Positions 13,109-47,276 of a stretch of 64,000 nt of DNA are shown piece by piece. Both the position numbers and the translations under genes were made by a program. This stretch comes from Chlamydiota bacterium (GTDB lineage: Bacteria > Chlamydiota > Chlamydiia > Chlamydiales > SM23-39): NCBI GenBank assembly GCA_048498835.1, contig JBEHXF010000001.1, forward strand, positions 32,001 through 96,000, given 5' to 3'. The notes beneath the pieces are model-generated. The model saw nothing but the letters and a program-made list of their open reading frames with translations, had not been told where the DNA came from and did not search any database. The first letter of the stretch is position 1; each line of letters opens with the position of its first letter.

Positions 13109-13909
13109 ATGCGCATACTTTTTTTTCTCATCTTCTTCATCGCCTCGCTCCACGCCACTTACATTGGCAATCCCGCCGGTCCTGCGATTATGAACACCGG
13201 GTTTTTCAGCCTGCGCAATCCGCTGATTAAAGGCACCACCGGCTACTACGGCGACTATATTTCCGACATGCGCTTTGTCCCGACGAAAGGTACTTCCGAA
13301 TTTGAAGCGGCTAACTCGTTCCGCCAATTCGGTCTCCATTCACAAATGGCCACCGCTTCTGTCATTTTCATGGAACGGATCGAGTTTTTCGGATCTGCTG
13401 GCGGCTCCAAAGAACATGCAAAATTTTCTGAAAAACCAACCATAAACGAAATTTCTGAAGAGCTCCTCGATTTTCACAGCACCTACACATTTTCCTGGGC
13501 GGCCGGAACCCGTATCGTTCTTCTACAGTGGTGGAGAGCCTACCTCAGTACCGATTTCACCTATTTTCAGGTTCCCTCATCCAGCCAATCGTATTTTAAA
13601 TTTCTCAACCGCCTCAATCTGCCTCTAGAGACCGAAAAGCAAACCTTCTCCATCGACGAATGGCAAATTTGCCTCGCTCTCTCTGCTCGATTTTTCTTCA
13701 TAACTCCTTACGGAGGAGGTACTTACATGCATTCCAAGCTCAATATCCACTCTGGCCCTGGCATCCCGCCCCTTTATTACACCAATAAAGAGCCCTGGGG
13801 CTATTTCTATGGCTTCACCATCTCTCTCACCGGCCGCTTCCACCTCAACTTCGAGCGGCGAATGCGCGATGAATTTGCCTATTCATTTGCCACGATCGCT
13901 GTCTTTTAA
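13109..13909 (+). CDS. Chlamydial MOMP-family outer membrane protein (short)
   Basis: Signal peptide ending SLHA, then YIGNPAGPAIM, which resembles the MOMP mature N-terminus (xGNPAEP). EWQ and PYGG strands and a C-terminal Phe fit a beta-barrel. Confidence 0.75.
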   Translation: MRILFFLIFFIASLHATYIGNPAGPAIMNTGFFSLRNPLIKGTTGYYGDYISDMRFVPTKGTSEFEAANSFRQFGLHSQMATASVIFMERIEFFGSAGGSKEHAKFSEKPTINEISEELLDFHSTYTFSWAAGTRIVLLQWWRAYLSTDFTYFQVPSSSQSYFKFLNRLNLPLETEKQTFSIDEWQICLALSARFFFITPYGGGTYMHSKLNIHSGPGIPPLYYTNKEPWGYFYGFTISLTGRFHLNFERRMRDEFAYSFATIAVF

Positions 13910-41014: not shown

Positions 41015-42076
41015 CTAATAGTTTACAATCTCTTCAGCTAAGACTGAACCGACATCAAGCACGTAGCTTGTCACAAGCTCTGCAGGAGTGACATCAAAAG
41101 CGGGGTTAAACACCGGCGCTTTGGCTGGACTCCAGCAAACCTGACCAAAGCTACCCGCCGCCCCACGAACTTCTGCAGCGGAACGCTCTTCAATCCTAAT
41201 CTTCGTTCCATCCACGCATTTCGTATCAATCGTAGTATATGGCGCTACCACATGGAAGGGGACGCCATGATAATGAGCAAGCACAGCCAATGAATAGGTC
41301 CCAATTTTATTCGCAAAATCACCATTAGCCGCAATCCGATCGGCGCCGACAAAAATCCGATCGATCTCACCCCGCTTCATCAACGAGGCTGCCATATTGT
41401 CACAAATCAAAGTGTATGGAATTCCATTCTGCTCCAATTCCCAAGCAGTCAATCGTCCGCCTTGTAGTAAAGGTCTGGTTTCACAAACATACACATGGAT
41501 ATTTTTCCCCTGCGCATGAGCCACCTTAATCACTCCCAACGCCGTTCCAACACCCGCTGTCGCTAAGCTACCGGTATTGCAATAAGTCATAATCCGCTCG
41601 CCAGGTTGCACTAAATTAGCTCCTGCCTCTGCCATCGACAAGCACAGAGCAGTATCCTCATGGAAAATTTCTTCCGTTGTTTGCAACACAGCTGTCCGAA
41701 AATCTTCGCGTCCTTTCATCGCTTCTAAGACTCGATCAATACAATAACCCAAGTTCACAGCCGTTGGCCGAGCATTTTTCAGCAACTTTGCAGCATCCAC
41801 TATTTCTTCTCGTGTACATCCCTGTTCTGCCATTTGACTCAGCGACAAAATAGCTGAAATACCAATCAAAGGAGCGCCACGAACCTTTAATCCCACAATC
41901 ACATCCACCATTTCCTCTGGCGATTTCACATCAATCCATTCTTCCTCCAAAGGCAGTTTCTGTTGGTTTAACACCATCAAAGCTCCATCTTTGTAACGAA
42001 TCGCCAAGCTCTCTAAAGCCAGCGAAAAAGTGAAAATAGGAAGCGTCATCATCATCGCTAAAATCATTCGCATCAT
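41015..42076 (-). CDS. mtnA: S-methyl-5-thioribose-1-phosphate isomerase with a hydrophobic N-terminal extension
   Basis: Motifs VRGAPLIG, ARPTAVNL, CNTGSLAT, ETRPLLQGGRLTAWEL, GADRIAANGD.ANKIGT and NPAFDVTP. SD sequence GGAGG precedes ATG 42076/42073. Confidence 0.95.
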   Translation of the reverse strand: MMRMILAMMMTLPIFTFSLALESLAIRYKDGALMVLNQQKLPLEEEWIDVKSPEEMVDVIVGLKVRGAPLIGISAILSLSQMAEQGCTREEIVDAAKLLKNARPTAVNLGYCIDRVLEAMKGREDFRTAVLQTTEEIFHEDTALCLSMAEAGANLVQPGERIMTYCNTGSLATAGVGTALGVIKVAHAQGKNIHVYVCETRPLLQGGRLTAWELEQNGIPYTLICDNMAASLMKRGEIDRIFVGADRIAANGDFANKIGTYSLAVLAHYHGVPFHVVAPYTTIDTKCVDGTKIRIEERSAAEVRGAAGSFGQVCWSPAKAPVFNPAFDVTPAELVTSYVLDVGSVLAEEIVNY

Positions 42077-42149
42077 AACCTCCGGTAAACGAAAAACCAA
42101 AAAATCTAACCCTTTTACTTTCAGCCGTCAATGATTTATCCTCTTTGCC

Positions 42150-42731
42150 ATGGTAAGCAATATCCGCCCTCAGAGTCTCATTTTCCTCGATATTGATAAC
42201 GTATTGTGGGATCCAGAGCAGGCGAATCATAATTGTAGCCTTCGCCAGAAAGCAAATGAATTATTCCACAAATCAAATGAAGGCGTTGTTAGTTATTTAG
42301 AATATGCGATAACTGGCAGTCATTTTTTTGATAAAACGGTTCTTACACATTTAAATACTCTAATCAAAAAAGTGCAAAAAGTAGCCGACGTCCAGATTGT
42401 CATTTGTAGCAAGTGGAGAACATACACCTCTCTTCAACAGCTTAAAGAACGAGTTTTTGATCGAACAGGATTTGCAGACCTCATTGTAGATGTAACACCG
42501 ATCAATAACGAATGCCGCGAAAAACAAATTCAAGAGTGGTTAGAAAACAACCCAAACCCACTTCGCAAAAGCTTTGTCATCTTGGATGATAATGGCTCTG
42601 AATTTCGTCAACTTTTCCAAAACCAACTAGTAGAAATCGCCATGTTTGGATTACTCACTGAAGCCGATGCAAGCAAAGCCGAGAAAATTTTGCTCGATCC
42701 TTTCCAAGTAGACGAAAGTAAAATTCAATGA
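42150..42731 (+). CDS. HAD-superfamily protein (HAD_SAK_2-like)
   Basis: Motif I IFLDIDNVL, IVICSKWR (variant of SSxWR), REKQIQEWL, FVILDD and GLLT. Confidence 0.75.
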   Translation: MVSNIRPQSLIFLDIDNVLWDPEQANHNCSLRQKANELFHKSNEGVVSYLEYAITGSHFFDKTVLTHLNTLIKKVQKVADVQIVICSKWRTYTSLQQLKERVFDRTGFADLIVDVTPINNECREKQIQEWLENNPNPLRKSFVILDDNGSEFRQLFQNQLVEIAMFGLLTEADASKAEKILLDPFQVDESKIQ

Positions 42732-42785
42732 ACTAGCGCTAAAATGCTCCTGGCAGTTATCTTTCTTGGCCATTTAGGAGTATTT

Positions 42786-43442
42786 ATGATCCGTTTAGCT
42801 TTTTTTCTGCTTTCATCCCCCTTCCTCTATGCCATTTCATTAGACCAAGCTGCACAAGAAATCGTCGAAGCTGGCCAATTTCTCAATCAGCAAAAACTCT
42901 GTCCTGCGACATCGGGTAATCTCTCCGTGCGAATCGATCACAATCTCGTGGCCATGACTGTTTCTGGAAAACATAAAGGAGAACTCACTGCTGACGATGT
43001 GATGCGTGTGGATCTCAATGGCAATCCCGTTGGCAGCGCTAAAAAACCGTCCGCAGAAACTCTTCTCCACACGCTTATCTACTCGCTCGACCCACAAGCA
43101 GGCGCAGTTCTCCACACACATACCCTCAGCGGAACGATTCTTTCCCGTCTTGTCGCACCCGAAAAAGCTCTCATCACTCAAGGCTATGAAATACACAAAG
43201 TTTTCCCGGGAATTACAACACATGAAAGCGCTTTAACCATCCCCATTTTCGAAAATAGCCAAGATATGCGCGCCTTAGCAATAGAAGTAGGTGATTACCT
43301 GAAAGCCCATCCTCAAACCTATGGATTCTTAGTTCGTGGTCATGGCCTTTACACTTGGGGACGCGATATGAAAGAGGTAAAAAATCGAGTGGAAGCTTTT
43401 GAATATCTTTTTGATGCAGAACTCTGCCAGAGGAAACCATGA
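42786..43442 (+). CDS. mtnB: Methylthioribulose-1-phosphate dehydratase with a signal-peptide-like N-terminus
   Basis: Motifs PATSGNLS, SGKHKG, KPSAETLLH, AVLHTH and GHGLYTWG. SD sequence AGGAG lies 5 nt before ATG 42786. Confidence 0.95.
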   Translation: MIRLAFFLLSSPFLYAISLDQAAQEIVEAGQFLNQQKLCPATSGNLSVRIDHNLVAMTVSGKHKGELTADDVMRVDLNGNPVGSAKKPSAETLLHTLIYSLDPQAGAVLHTHTLSGTILSRLVAPEKALITQGYEIHKVFPGITTHESALTIPIFENSQDMRALAIEVGDYLKAHPQTYGFLVRGHGLYTWGRDMKEVKNRVEAFEYLFDAELCQRKP

Positions 43443-44176
43443 TCCCATCGATTGAAATCCACCAACCTTATTTTATCTTTGAATCTGTTCAAGCGATTCT
43501 CACCGATATCGAGGGGACTACCACGTCCATTTCTTTCGTACACGACACTCTCTTTCCTTATGCAAAAGCCCATGTCAAAGACTACCTTCTTTTACACGCT
43601 CATAAACCTGAACTTCAAAAAATCATCGAAGAAGTGAAACAATTATCAGGAATGCCTGAAGCGACTCTAGAAGAAGTCGCCGCTATCCTCTACACTTGGA
43701 TGCAACAGGACAAAAAAATCACACCACTAAAAACAATCCAAGGGTGGATGTGGGAAGAAGGGTATAAGCAAGGCGATTTTCAAGGACACGTATACCCAGA
43801 CGCCTATGAAAATCTCATCTCCTGGCATCAGTCATCTATCCCTCTCTACATCTATTCATCTGGATCCATTCATGCGCAAAAGCTCCTCTTTGGCCATTCC
43901 AATTTCGGAGATCTTACCCCACTTTTCTCAGGTCACTTTGACACCACAACTGGTCCTAAAAAAGAGGCCTCTTCCTACCAAATAATCGCCGAAAAGATCC
44001 AGCTGCCACCCTCGGCTATTCTTTTTCTCTCCGATTCCATTGACGAAATCAAGGCTGCTCGCTCGATTGGAATGCAGACAGCGCTCATCACTCGAGAAGC
44101 TCCCACAGCCTCAAGTTTCGATCAAATTATCATCAGGTCTGCAACAGAAGCTCAAAACCGCGTCGCGCTTGATTGA
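43439..44176 (+). CDS. mtnC: Enolase-phosphatase E1 (acireductone synthase)
   Basis: Motifs LTDIEGTT, FVHDTLFPYA, DKKITPLKTIQG, YSSGS..AQKLLF and LFLSD. Confidence 0.95.
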   Translation: MIPSIEIHQPYFIFESVQAILTDIEGTTTSISFVHDTLFPYAKAHVKDYLLLHAHKPELQKIIEEVKQLSGMPEATLEEVAAILYTWMQQDKKITPLKTIQGWMWEEGYKQGDFQGHVYPDAYENLISWHQSSIPLYIYSSGSIHAQKLLFGHSNFGDLTPLFSGHFDTTTGPKKEASSYQIIAEKIQLPPSAILFLSDSIDEIKAARSIGMQTALITREAPTASSFDQIIIRSATEAQNRVALD

Positions 44177-45155: not shown

Positions 45156-46355
45156 ATGGAGAACAAACCACAATTTAGACAAATCCCGCAGGCGCGACTC
45201 ATCCTTACACAGGCTTTGCGCCGCTCATTGGAAATTCTCCAAATGCCACAAATTGAACTCGCTTCCTTAATCGAAGAGGAAATAGAAAAAAACCCCCTTC
45301 TGGAATTGCAATCAGATCGTCATACCGCCACTCGATCGCCCTCCCCCTTACCCGAACCACCCTCCAAACCCTCTCTTTATGACCATCTTGAAAACCAAAT
45401 TCGCGAAAACATCCCTGACTCCTCTGAACAGCAGATGGCTAGAGAAGCGCTCACCCATCTCGATGAACGAGGCTTTTTTACCGGTTCAGATCATCCGCTC
45501 TTACACCTTCTACAGACGTTCGACCCCCCAGGAATTTTTGCCCGAAATTTACAAGAGTCCTATCTCCTTCAACTAGCTCGATTAGGTCTTTCTGATTCCT
45601 CCACCTTTCGAATTGTAGCCGACTCATTTGATGATCTTTTACAAGCTCGTTATAGCCAAATCAAAAAACGGCATAAACTCAATGGAGAAGAGTTTGCAAA
45701 TGCCATCCACAAACTATCGCGCCTTTCTAGAAGACCCATCTCCGATTTTTCATCTGCCAATCCCGCTCCTATCCACGCTGATTTGCGCCTCATAAAAGTT
45801 GGACATCAATGGATCGTCGAATCGATTGAAGATGCCCTGCCTCAATTTCGGCTTCGAACCGAATATTTATCTCTACCCAATCTTGCAACGGCCGAAAAAG
45901 AAACCATGCGCCACTTTTCCATCTCTGCAAAATGGCTCATCCGCTCCATTCAAAAAAGGCGGAAATTCCTCCTTTCCCTCGCCTCTTATCTAGTTCGAAA
46001 ACAAGTTCATTTTCTCAATCAAAAAGGGCCTCTCATACCCATTTCTGCAGTCGAACTGGCCGCTGAACTCAATGTCCATGAATCAACCATTTCTCGAGCC
46101 CTCTCTGAAAAATACCTAGCAAGTCCGAATGGACTAATGCCCTTCCATGCACTTGTCCCATCCACCTCGAATGAATCTGGCAAAGAACTGCTCCAAAAGC
46201 TCATCGCACAAGAAGATAAAACCAAACCATTTACAGACGATCAATTGGCTTTAGAAATGAAAAAGGCGGGCTGTGAAATGGCCCGCCGCACGATTACAAA
46301 ATACCGTAAGCTTTTGAAAATTGGCTCAGCTTCGGCTCGAAAACATCTGCGCTGA
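45156..46355 (+). CDS. rpoN: RNA polymerase sigma-54 factor
   Basis: LEILQMP..EL..NPLLE, LDERGF, DPPGIFARNLQE, HESTISRA HTH and the RpoN box ARRTITKYR. Start is 45156 or 45144. Confidence 0.93.
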   Translation: MENKPQFRQIPQARLILTQALRRSLEILQMPQIELASLIEEEIEKNPLLELQSDRHTATRSPSPLPEPPSKPSLYDHLENQIRENIPDSSEQQMAREALTHLDERGFFTGSDHPLLHLLQTFDPPGIFARNLQESYLLQLARLGLSDSSTFRIVADSFDDLLQARYSQIKKRHKLNGEEFANAIHKLSRLSRRPISDFSSANPAPIHADLRLIKVGHQWIVESIEDALPQFRLRTEYLSLPNLATAEKETMRHFSISAKWLIRSIQKRRKFLLSLASYLVRKQVHFLNQKGPLIPISAVELAAELNVHESTISRALSEKYLASPNGLMPFHALVPSTSNESGKELLQKLIAQEDKTKPFTDDQLALEMKKAGCEMARRTITKYRKLLKIGSASARKHLR

Positions 46356-47276
46356 GTAAACGGGATTAACCATATTCCGCTTCGAAAGTCTTTCTAAGAT
46401 GCTCACGGGGGATCGATCAGGAAATAAAAGCGCCTTATGAGGAATTAAGAACGTCTGTTCTAAAGCATACTGACCGGATAAAGCCGCATGCGAAACTAAA
46501 TCTGTGTAAACAGCCCAGCAAGAATTCGGTGGGAATTCCCACGCATCTTTCGGACAATTTTTCTGAAATTCTTCATTCTCTTTTAAAAAGTTGTGCATAT
46601 TCAGCATAAAAACATCGTAGGGAGAACGGAGCGGCATTTTTACCCCTGCTTTACGGATCCACTCTAACATCTTTCTCTCTAATCGTTCTTTTAAGCTATA
46701 ACCAACCGATTTGGGATATTGCACTCCAGCTCCACCAAATTCTTGCATCAAATCGCCACAAGGCTTGGACGTGATCCAACGACGTCCTTCGACTGGATTG
46801 ATGTTCGTAAAAAAGCGCAAAATACGTGCGCCATGAAGAGGTCGAGTTGGAAATGCATCGACATGGAGCAAATCATTGCGCGCGCGAAGTCTCAACTTCC
46901 TCCCTTTCTCTTGAAACGGGCGAAAGCTTGCATAATCATGTTTCCAATCTTTTGCATACGGCGCCAAAACAACAGAGAGAAAATCGGTCACTCTGGAAGA
47001 ATAATTGCGCAACACTTCCAGCATCTTTGCTGCCGCAGCAGGATCTTGTGTATCGTGGTTGGTAATTTTATCTTGTTGTGGCTTGTAGGCGATATTTTTA
47101 CGACTGCTAGAACCGCCTTGTCGCTGAGCTAAGAGAAAGTCGATTTCATCTTGTGGAAATGCGAAAGGCGTCTTTGGGAAAAAGAGAATATTGCCGCTTT
47201 CAAGCTCTGCCGCATACTTGAAACGATTTCGATCATCCTTCCATTCACCATCTTGTACGACTATCTTTTGGGCCAT
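46326..47276 (-). CDS. kdoO: Kdo 3-hydroxylase (KdoO-like Fe(II)/2-oxoglutarate dioxygenase)
   Basis: KNIAY, SFRP, LLHVDAFPTRP, RILRFFTNINP, RSPYD.FML.MH..LK and YTD.VSHAALSGQYALEQT match the Kdo hydroxylase family. Confidence 0.85.
   Translation of the reverse strand: MAQKIVVQDGEWKDDRNRFKYAAELESGNILFFPKTPFAFPQDEIDFLLAQRQGGSSSRKNIAYKPQQDKITNHDTQDPAAAAKMLEVLRNYSSRVTDFLSVVLAPYAKDWKHDYASFRPFQEKGRKLRLRARNDLLHVDAFPTRPLHGARILRFFTNINPVEGRRWITSKPCGDLMQEFGGAGVQYPKSVGYSLKERLERKMLEWIRKAGVKMPLRSPYDVFMLNMHNFLKENEEFQKNCPKDAWEFPPNSCWAVYTDLVSHAALSGQYALEQTFLIPHKALLFPDRSPVSILERLSKRNMVNPVYSAQMFSSRS

Follow-up and report, generated by a model that had tools for sequence, protein, structure and literature searches.

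We analysed a window of 64,000 nucleotides (nt) of a Chlamydiota genome (GCA_048498835.1, contig JBEHXF010000001.1; G000:C1:32001-96000 in our numbering), the assembly being 1.97 Mb long and 97% complete, in which the methionine-salvage genes mtnA, mtnB and mtnC lie together. Labels of homologues and at least four nucleotide transporters agree with an assignment to Chlamydiota. Methionine salvage, whose intermediates are phosphorylated, is regarded as a cytoplasmic pathway, and chlamydial metabolic reconstructions place its genes inside the cell. MtnA and MtnB of this locus each begin with a predicted signal peptide, and we suggest that they belong to a set of related enzymes that would act outside the bacterial cytoplasm. 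The features of the locus are as follows (aa, amino acids; SPI, signal peptidase I; positions are those of the window).

41015..42073, minus strand: mtnA, methylthioribose-1-phosphate isomerase, 352 aa (TIGR00512, residues, fold)
42023..42073, minus strand: MtnA leader of 17 aa, predicted to be a Sec/SPI signal peptide cut after S17
42079..42083, minus strand: Shine-Dalgarno sequence GGAGG of mtnA, with a spacing of 5 nt to ATG 42073 and of only 2 nt to ATG 42076
42786..43442, plus strand: mtnB, methylthioribulose-1-phosphate dehydratase, 218 aa (TIGR03328, residues, fold)
42786..42833, plus strand: MtnB leader of 16 aa, predicted to be a Sec/SPI signal peptide cut after A16
42776..42780, plus strand: Shine-Dalgarno sequence AGGAG of mtnB, 5 nt before ATG 42786
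43439..44176, plus strand: mtnC, enolase-phosphatase E1, 245 aa, its start overlapping the mtnB stop (ATGA) (TIGR01691)
43439..43486, plus strand: the first 16 aa or so of MtnC, an extension that is non-hydrophobic and not a Sec signal; most homologues of the clade have a hydrophobic leader here
42150..42731, plus strand: HAD_SAK_2-family gene between mtnA and mtnB, 193 aa, leaderless

All three enzymes score above the cut-offs of their family models: MtnA reaches 394 bits against TIGR00512 (cut-off 279), MtnB 220 against TIGR03328 (cut-off 137) and MtnC 250 against TIGR01691 (cut-off 128). MtnA retains C165 and D245, each found in 90% or more of the homologues, and we take them to be catalytic as in Bacillus subtilis MtnA; in MtnB, E91, H110 and H186 are invariant and H112 is at least 90% conserved, the four presumably forming the metal site of class II aldolases. 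The predicted fold of MtnA matches that of B. subtilis MtnA with a template modelling (TM) score of 0.82, and that of MtnB matches APIP with a TM score of 0.80. The start sites set out in the original prediction, ATG 42786 for mtnB and ATG 42076 or 42073 for mtnA, each backed by a Shine-Dalgarno sequence, are borne out by the spacings listed above. Mis-called starts were considered for both genes and rejected on the sequence evidence. In mtnB, codons 2-40 hold no ATG, GTG or TTG, and the upstream in-frame ATG 42744 lacks a Shine-Dalgarno sequence. The same is true, for mtnA, of the run of three Met codons (42055-42049), the later TTG starts and the upstream TTG 42100.

Signal calls were made here with a home-made heuristic, not with a validated predictor such as SignalP 6 or Phobius. 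It is positive for the leaders of MtnA and MtnB and negative for MtnC, in keeping with the earlier description of the first two N-termini as signal-peptide-like and of the third as non-classical. Both leaders have a basic start, a hydrophobic stretch and a cleavage motif, with small residues at -3 and -1, right at the fold boundary: the family models start just past them, at residue 24 in MtnA and at residues 19-26 in MtnB, and the predicted folds of both start at residue 19, the first 10 residues having a predicted local distance difference test score (pLDDT) of 57-59. We found no lipoprotein (signal peptidase II) or Tat signal, as neither leader contains a Cys or an RR pair, and an RRxFL motif, sought across the genome, matches just two unrelated N-termini. 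By chance, an ATG-led basic and hydrophobic stretch occurs in 8 of 1792 frames upstream of the called genes of this genome. The two exported-looking proteins of the window with which these leaders had been compared are both present (at 13109 on the plus strand and 33002 on the minus strand); the NamZ assignment is confirmed by Pfam, and the open reading frame (ORF) called MOMP-like has no Pfam match at 1e-8. The leaders of MtnA and MtnB are thus likely to be Sec signal peptides, as far as can be predicted from sequence, and these enzymes are very probably exported.

The leaders are shared by the chlamydial orthologues and missing from the outgroups. For this tally we took chlamydial-clade homologues with at least 8 residues before the fold, from 120 MtnA and 90 MtnB rows, and defined a hydrophobic core as an 8-residue Kyte-Doolittle mean of at least 2. 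Such a core is found in 105 of the 109 leader-length MtnA and 77 of the 83 leader-length MtnB proteins, and a K or R lies within the first 6 residues of 84 and 67 of them, respectively. The heuristic is positive for 102/120 clade MtnA, for 78/90 clade MtnB and for none of 30 Marinobacter-type outgroup MtnB; all 69 complete non-chlamydial mtnA loci begin at the fold, as judged by eye. Identity is 0.24-0.25 within the leaders and 0.65-0.78 within the mature proteins, and signal peptides would be expected to vary in this way before a conserved mature part. What the putative signals share is their character as leaders rather than their sequence. Two MtnA-MtnB fusions carry one leader each, at the N-terminus, their inner domain having none. 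Three apparently leaderless database proteins (P0143, P0049 and P0059) are identical to loci with a leader in the upstream DNA (L010, L002 and L205, respectively). Automatic leader labels on the outgroup loci L042, L050, L071, L100, L093 and L229 were rejected, the scan having run into the frame ahead of the likely start; inspection by eye shows no leaders there (the MtnB of L093 is uncertain).

In quick trees without bootstrap, built on mature parts only, the leader-bearing MtnA copies fall into one clade of 58 rows with a support of 91 in the Shimodaira-Hasegawa-like approximate likelihood ratio test (SH-aLRT); a wider clade of 62 rows has a support of 98, three of the four added rows being leaderless. 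The loci L018-L020, which were read, were filtered out of this tree, and L105 is incomplete. The clade adjoins two leaderless Gammaproteobacteria, one with a complete leaderless operon (L035), whose MtnA lies in the sister group. Leader-bearing MtnB is likewise gathered in one clade, with a support of 99. A single gain of the leader after gene transfer is plausible from these topologies. Chlamydiota also hold leaderless MtnA of different origin, in G096, G116, G149 and G210 and as a second copy in G275. Some copies of mtnA or mtnD are duplicated, truncated or frameshifted (L014/L026 in G176, L023/L368 in G141, L034, L093), which suggests ongoing decay or sequencing error.

Leaders recur on the related enzymes encoded elsewhere in this genome. 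MtnA, MtnB, MtnC, MtnD and a transaminase are all present; we found no MetK, MtnK or MtnN in it, nor a dedicated MtnE. The original prediction had rightly placed mtnD, mtnK and mtnN outside the window, MtnD being encoded on contig C20. Leaders are predicted on MtnD, on a PNP-I-family nucleoside phosphorylase (C17; PNP, purine nucleoside phosphorylase), on SpeD (C15) and on SpeE (C50), and the AspC/TyrB-type transaminase is leaderless. Judged by sequence prediction, the salvage steps with leaders (phosphorylase, MtnA, MtnB, MtnD) do not fit an all-cytoplasmic pathway. The MtnK label of the first gene of L025 was given by eye, and the fragment cut from that gene has no Pfam match. Beside mtnD (G000 C20:18501-21022) lies a run of short ORFs of similar length with Ser-rich starts, possibly a tandem effector family.

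The same holds across the chlamydial copies that were read, a set from which SpeE L139, SpeD L321 and the distant phosphorylases L293-L297 are left out: leaders are carried by 10/10 MtnD, 6/6 close phosphorylases, 26/29 SpeE (the other three being short) and 24/30 SpeD. A leaderless speD-speE operon occurs in the sample in one genus only (g91). SpeD is above the cut-off in 68/251 genomes and SpeE in 63/250, and both are present in 6 of the 8 genomes with a leader-bearing MtnA, a comparison in which related genomes are not independent. In L210, mtnB, mtnA, mtnC, mtnD and the phosphorylase gene are clustered, every one with a leader; the phosphorylase gene is also clustered with mtn genes in L204 and, more loosely, in L211. 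G275 has leaders on all eight of MetK, SpeD, SpeE, the phosphorylase and MtnA-D; a second mtnA cluster in that genome is leaderless. As a control, MetK is leaderless at 28/31 loci, 2 having a leader and 1 being degenerate; the loci concerned are L356:1991-3253 (G275), L349 (G130) and L357 (G188), with a signal-like leader in two of these genomes and a degenerate version in the other. Lone leader-bearing MtnA (L012 in G111, L015 in G266) or MtnD (L162 in G276, L164 in G229) occur as well, in genomes 91-99% complete where no other salvage gene was found.

The phosphorylase is of the trimeric type, and its base-specificity position holds Asp in 4 of 5 readable copies, a residue whose meaning we assume. 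This Asp and the gene context give a hint that the enzyme cleaves methylthioadenosine (MTA). BrnQ-family genes adjoin the cluster in two families, and genes for EamA and major facilitator superfamily (MFS) proteins and transaminases adjoin some clusters. Methionine is reported to be a competitor at chlamydial BrnQ (PMC11140210).

The salvage module does not stand alone: a wider set of normally cytosolic enzymes in this genome bears leaders. The heuristic finds 323 signal-like N-termini among 1816 called ORFs, a count inflated by Rossmann-fold false positives, and 253 of them have no further membrane helix. All 26 proteins picked by eye from this list, a chosen set and not a rate, were assigned to a Pfam enzyme family. 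They include Ndk, adenine and uracil phosphoribosyltransferases (APRT, UPRT), adenosine 5'-phosphosulfate (APS) kinase, a thioredoxin reductase-thioredoxin fusion, an Fe/Mn superoxide dismutase, an NAD epimerase, HIT, NUDIX and LOG-type proteins, sulfotransferases, methyltransferases and glycosyltransferases. Ten paralogue sets have members with and without a leader, such as the tandem Ndk (69% identity) and proline iminopeptidase (64%). The salvage module would be one part of a lineage habit of exporting cytosolic enzymes.

Several members of this wider set are worth recording. In the tandem ndk pair (C5:1978-2946, L113), a single copy has the leader, as in ndk1/ndk2 of Waddlia chondrophila. 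The sole APRT and UPRT found bear leaders (C65:7408-7980, L119, and C8:38856-39527, L115), and a leader-bearing UPRT follows mtnB-mtnC in G176 (L367). The leader-bearing APS kinase (C15:15728-16693, L117) has a C-terminal cytidylyltransferase-like stretch, and C6, C17, C18 and C44 encode several sulfotransferases, glycosyltransferases and methyltransferases with leaders, many of them in clusters; together with the APS kinase these are a possible exported system of glycan modification or sulfation. The thioredoxin reductase-thioredoxin fusion (C34:7408-8787, L120) and a thioredoxin (C3:31382-31741, L121) bear leaders, have leaderless paralogues and would need NADPH outside the cytoplasm. Motif searches for glycogen synthase/phosphorylase, CPAF, LepB, SecA, ATP sulfurylase, PotD and ornithine decarboxylase gave no match, a weak negative as the motifs were crude.

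We think it fairly likely that MtnA and MtnB take part in an exported cycle linking S-adenosylmethionine (SAM), polyamines and methionine, which would act on host metabolites in the inclusion lumen or the host cytosol. Sec would move each enzyme to the periplasm, where the leader would be cut, and type II secretion or vesicles would release it past the outer membrane. SpeD and SpeE would turn host SAM and putrescine into spermidine and MTA; the phosphorylase, with phosphate, would split MTA into adenine, recaptured by the leader-bearing APRT, and methylthioribose 1-phosphate (MTR-1-P), which MtnA, MtnB, an enolase-phosphatase and MtnD would convert to the keto acid 2-keto-4-methylthiobutyrate (KMTB). 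The MtnC of this genome might join by another export route or be replaced by the host enzyme. KMTB would be transaminated by the host, or by the cytosolic transaminase after uptake, methionine or KMTB being imported. The relocation of the pathway that had been proposed is supported by the sequence data, export and destination being deduced; interception of host MTA, which had been offered as an example of its purpose, is probably not the whole of it, because the MTA-producing SpeD and SpeE bear predicted export leaders too.

A host-facing destination is suggested by the cosubstrates: the exported set would require SAM, phosphoribosyl pyrophosphate (PRPP), ATP and NADPH, which this genome apparently does not make outside the cytoplasm (the PRPP-synthetase motif has a single match, leaderless). 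Lone leader-bearing enzymes would likewise need host partners. The genes for the type II secretin and GspE are adjacent on contig C19, so that predicted Sec signals and type II machinery coexist in the genome, as chlamydial substrates of this route require. The lumen or host cytosol is favoured partly by data from Waddlia, where the signal peptide of Ndk2 has a SignalP probability of 0.999 and allows leader-dependent reach to host compartments in heterologous systems (PMC13318545), and where 13 of 19 proteins detected in the host cytosol have predicted signal peptides (PMC7143554). One might speculate further, and tentatively, that many uncultured chlamydiae, by adding Sec leaders to ordinary cytosolic enzymes, send a closed SAM cycle (MetK, SpeD, SpeE, phosphorylase, MtnA-D), along with enzymes of nucleotide salvage, sulfation, methylation, glycosylation and redox metabolism, to the inclusion lumen or host cytosol and thereby directly govern the SAM, MTA and polyamine pools of the host, the non-hydrophobic MtnC extension being a type III signal to that same site.

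A number of observations weigh against an exported cycle. The MtnC of this genome has no hydrophobic leader, no signal is hidden in frame upstream of it, and no canonical slippery site was seen by eye at the mtnB/mtnC overlap. Among the MtnC matches, a set that includes non-chlamydial proteins, 71/120 have a hydrophobic leader, 31 start at the fold and 18 have another extension; in the MtnC tree the copy of this genome is basal without strong support, and loss and absence from the outset are not separable. In G096 (L166) the mtaP, mtnA, mtnB and mtnC cluster is leaderless and MtnD alone has a leader, and the leaderless MtnB of G096 falls within the leader-bearing clade (support 99) of the MtnB tree. 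The heuristic is also triggered by Rossmann-fold N-termini. The module is patchy, a leader-bearing MtnA being present in 8/251 sampled genomes, with MtnA, MtnB, MtnC and MtnD all detected in just three of these eight; G111 and G266 have, besides the salvage genes mentioned above as not found, no SpeD or SpeE over the cut-off. The phosphorylase scores 298 bits against TIGR01700 (inosine/guanosine PNP) and 72 against the MTA phosphorylase (MTAP) model, the cut-off of which is 275, and proteins homologous to SpeD can decarboxylate ornithine or arginine instead (PMC10407285). An exported transaminase was not upheld: of the 25 class I/II aminotransferases in five carrier genomes, a single one has a leader. 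The nucleotide transporters, at least four in this genome, mean that host nucleotides reach the periplasm, so the need for cosubstrates leaves that compartment possible. Lastly, the Waddlia authors consider that the Ndk2 leader may be retained and act as a host targeting signal (PMC13318545).

The leaderless MtnC and the mixed case of G096 would be expected if the leaders were no export signals at all, that is, if they came from mis-called starts, anchored the proteins uncleaved on the cytoplasmic face of the membrane or were neutral extensions. The same is true of SpeD, SpeE, APRT, UPRT and APS kinase, which were found only as leader-bearing copies, as a cytoplasmic role would need. We hold this to be very improbable, since MtnB has no alternative start, the cleavage motifs sit exactly at the fold boundary, the inner leader is lost in the fusions, the paralogue sets differ by leader and the chance rate is low (8/1792).

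A Sec leader alone takes a protein only to the periplasm, and the enzymes may stay there, in an extra compartment fed through porins with host SAM, nucleotides and polyamine precursors, the products entering by inner-membrane carriers. The nucleotide transporters, and the EamA, BrnQ and MFS carriers encoded beside module genes, handle such metabolites at the inner membrane, and a leaderless MtnC and transaminase would be easier to couple across one membrane. This is nonetheless rather unlikely in our view: the leader-bearing Waddlia Ndk2 was found in the host cytosol and nucleus, no periplasmic partners were found for the lone MtnA or MtnD, which the host would supply with partners, and the set includes PRPP- and NADPH-dependent enzymes.

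Single enzymes that persist without the rest of the pathway also bring to mind effectors that manipulate the host, by lowering host MTA/MTR-1-P or SAM, by raising spermidine or by moonlighting, with recovery of methionine secondary. Leader-type SpeD and SpeE are far commoner than the salvage arm, and in the PDB the titles of the human counterparts name the cell-death inhibitor APIP (4m6r) and Mediator of Rho Dependent Invasion (4ldq). As the primary role this seems distinctly improbable, because full clusters of the phosphorylase with MtnA-D recur beside amino-acid transporter or transaminase genes, which is what a pathway yielding a usable product would show; it is, at the same time, compatible with the exported cycle and does not exclude it.

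Universal aerobic methionine salvage (MtnP or MtnN+MtnK, MtnA-D and a transaminase) uses the same MtnA-D families, and the catalytic residues are kept here. The module differs from it in its leaders, in a PNP-I-family phosphorylase that apparently replaces MTAP or MtnN+MtnK, and in its linkage to leader-bearing SpeD, SpeE and sometimes MetK. The Waddlia Ndk1/Ndk2 pair (PMC13318545; PMC7143554) is likewise a duplicated housekeeping enzyme of which one copy has a signal peptide, but it is one enzyme and not a pathway, and the passages and table rows of these papers that were covered mention no enzyme of salvage or polyamine synthesis. In Chlamydia trachomatis the glycogen enzymes of the inclusion lumen form a whole pathway outside the bacterium on a host substrate, as is proposed here, but with type III signals, unlike the Sec-type leaders described above (PMC6717882). 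Chlamydiae do have a route through Sec and then type II secretion, taken for instance by CPAF, and the substrates listed in the same source are proteases and unknown proteins, not enzymes of small-molecule pathways (PMC6717882). Borrelia burgdorferi, also host-dependent and also salvaging MTA, exports the nucleosidases Bgp and MtnN, which act on MTA and S-adenosylhomocysteine and have signal peptides, alongside a cytoplasmic paralogue; this covers the first hydrolytic step only, and the passages covered name no exported enzymes for phosphorylated thio-sugars (PMC7557402). Rhabdochlamydia helvetica has metK, speD and speE, hence SAM and spermidine genes in another chlamydia, export going unmentioned in the passages covered (PMC6490308). 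We found no description of exported MtnA or MtnB, or of an exported salvage pathway, in the literature searched, which consisted mostly of open-access papers, supplements aside. The enzyme families are known; an exported multi-step salvage pathway would be new with respect to single-enzyme precedents such as Waddlia Ndk2 and Borrelia Bgp.

If the leaders work as predicted, an intracellular lineage has moved a multi-step pathway to a host-facing compartment, in one genome as eight enzymes running from SAM synthesis to the keto acid. The idea of the metabolic effector would then take in Sec/type II cargo as well as the glycogen enzymes secreted by type III, and the leader-bearing enzymes would provide a list of candidate type II substrates, few of which are known in chlamydiae so far. 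Control of host SAM, MTA and polyamines would become open to testing as a part of chlamydial symbiosis, and maps that record only the presence or absence of pathway genes can mislead for these genomes.

Two types of enzyme deserve a further remark. A minority of chlamydial MtnC proteins have, in place of the Sec leader, a polar and often Pro/Glu-rich extension of 15-55 residues, namely the copy of this window (43439-43486), L203:4670-6070 (an MtnC-MtnB fusion in G002), P0243, P0251, P0252, P0254, P0258, P0266, P0271, P0283 and P0288. This extension is possibly another export signal; a search for a motif shared by the non-hydrophobic MtnC extensions gave 13 genome matches of mixed kinds and was uninformative. 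The one class I/II aminotransferase with a leader (L379) occurs in a module-carrying genome, G006.

At the locus itself, mtnA and mtnB are on opposite strands as described, though not as an immediate divergent pair, since the HAD_SAK_2-family gene sits between them. This gene is probably a passenger: it was not seen in the related clusters that were read. It has one paralogue in the genome, 28% identical, on C2. The locus is flanked by uvrD on one side and a glycosyltransferase-like gene on the other (names by eye). Of 61 relatives, this genome counted, only 5 were found to encode MtnB. In G002, of the same genus, the equivalent site holds mtnA and an mtnC-mtnB fusion. Also syntenic in G002 is an ORF of 316 aa (46326-47276 of the window) that looks by eye like a Kdo hydroxylase-type dioxygenase.

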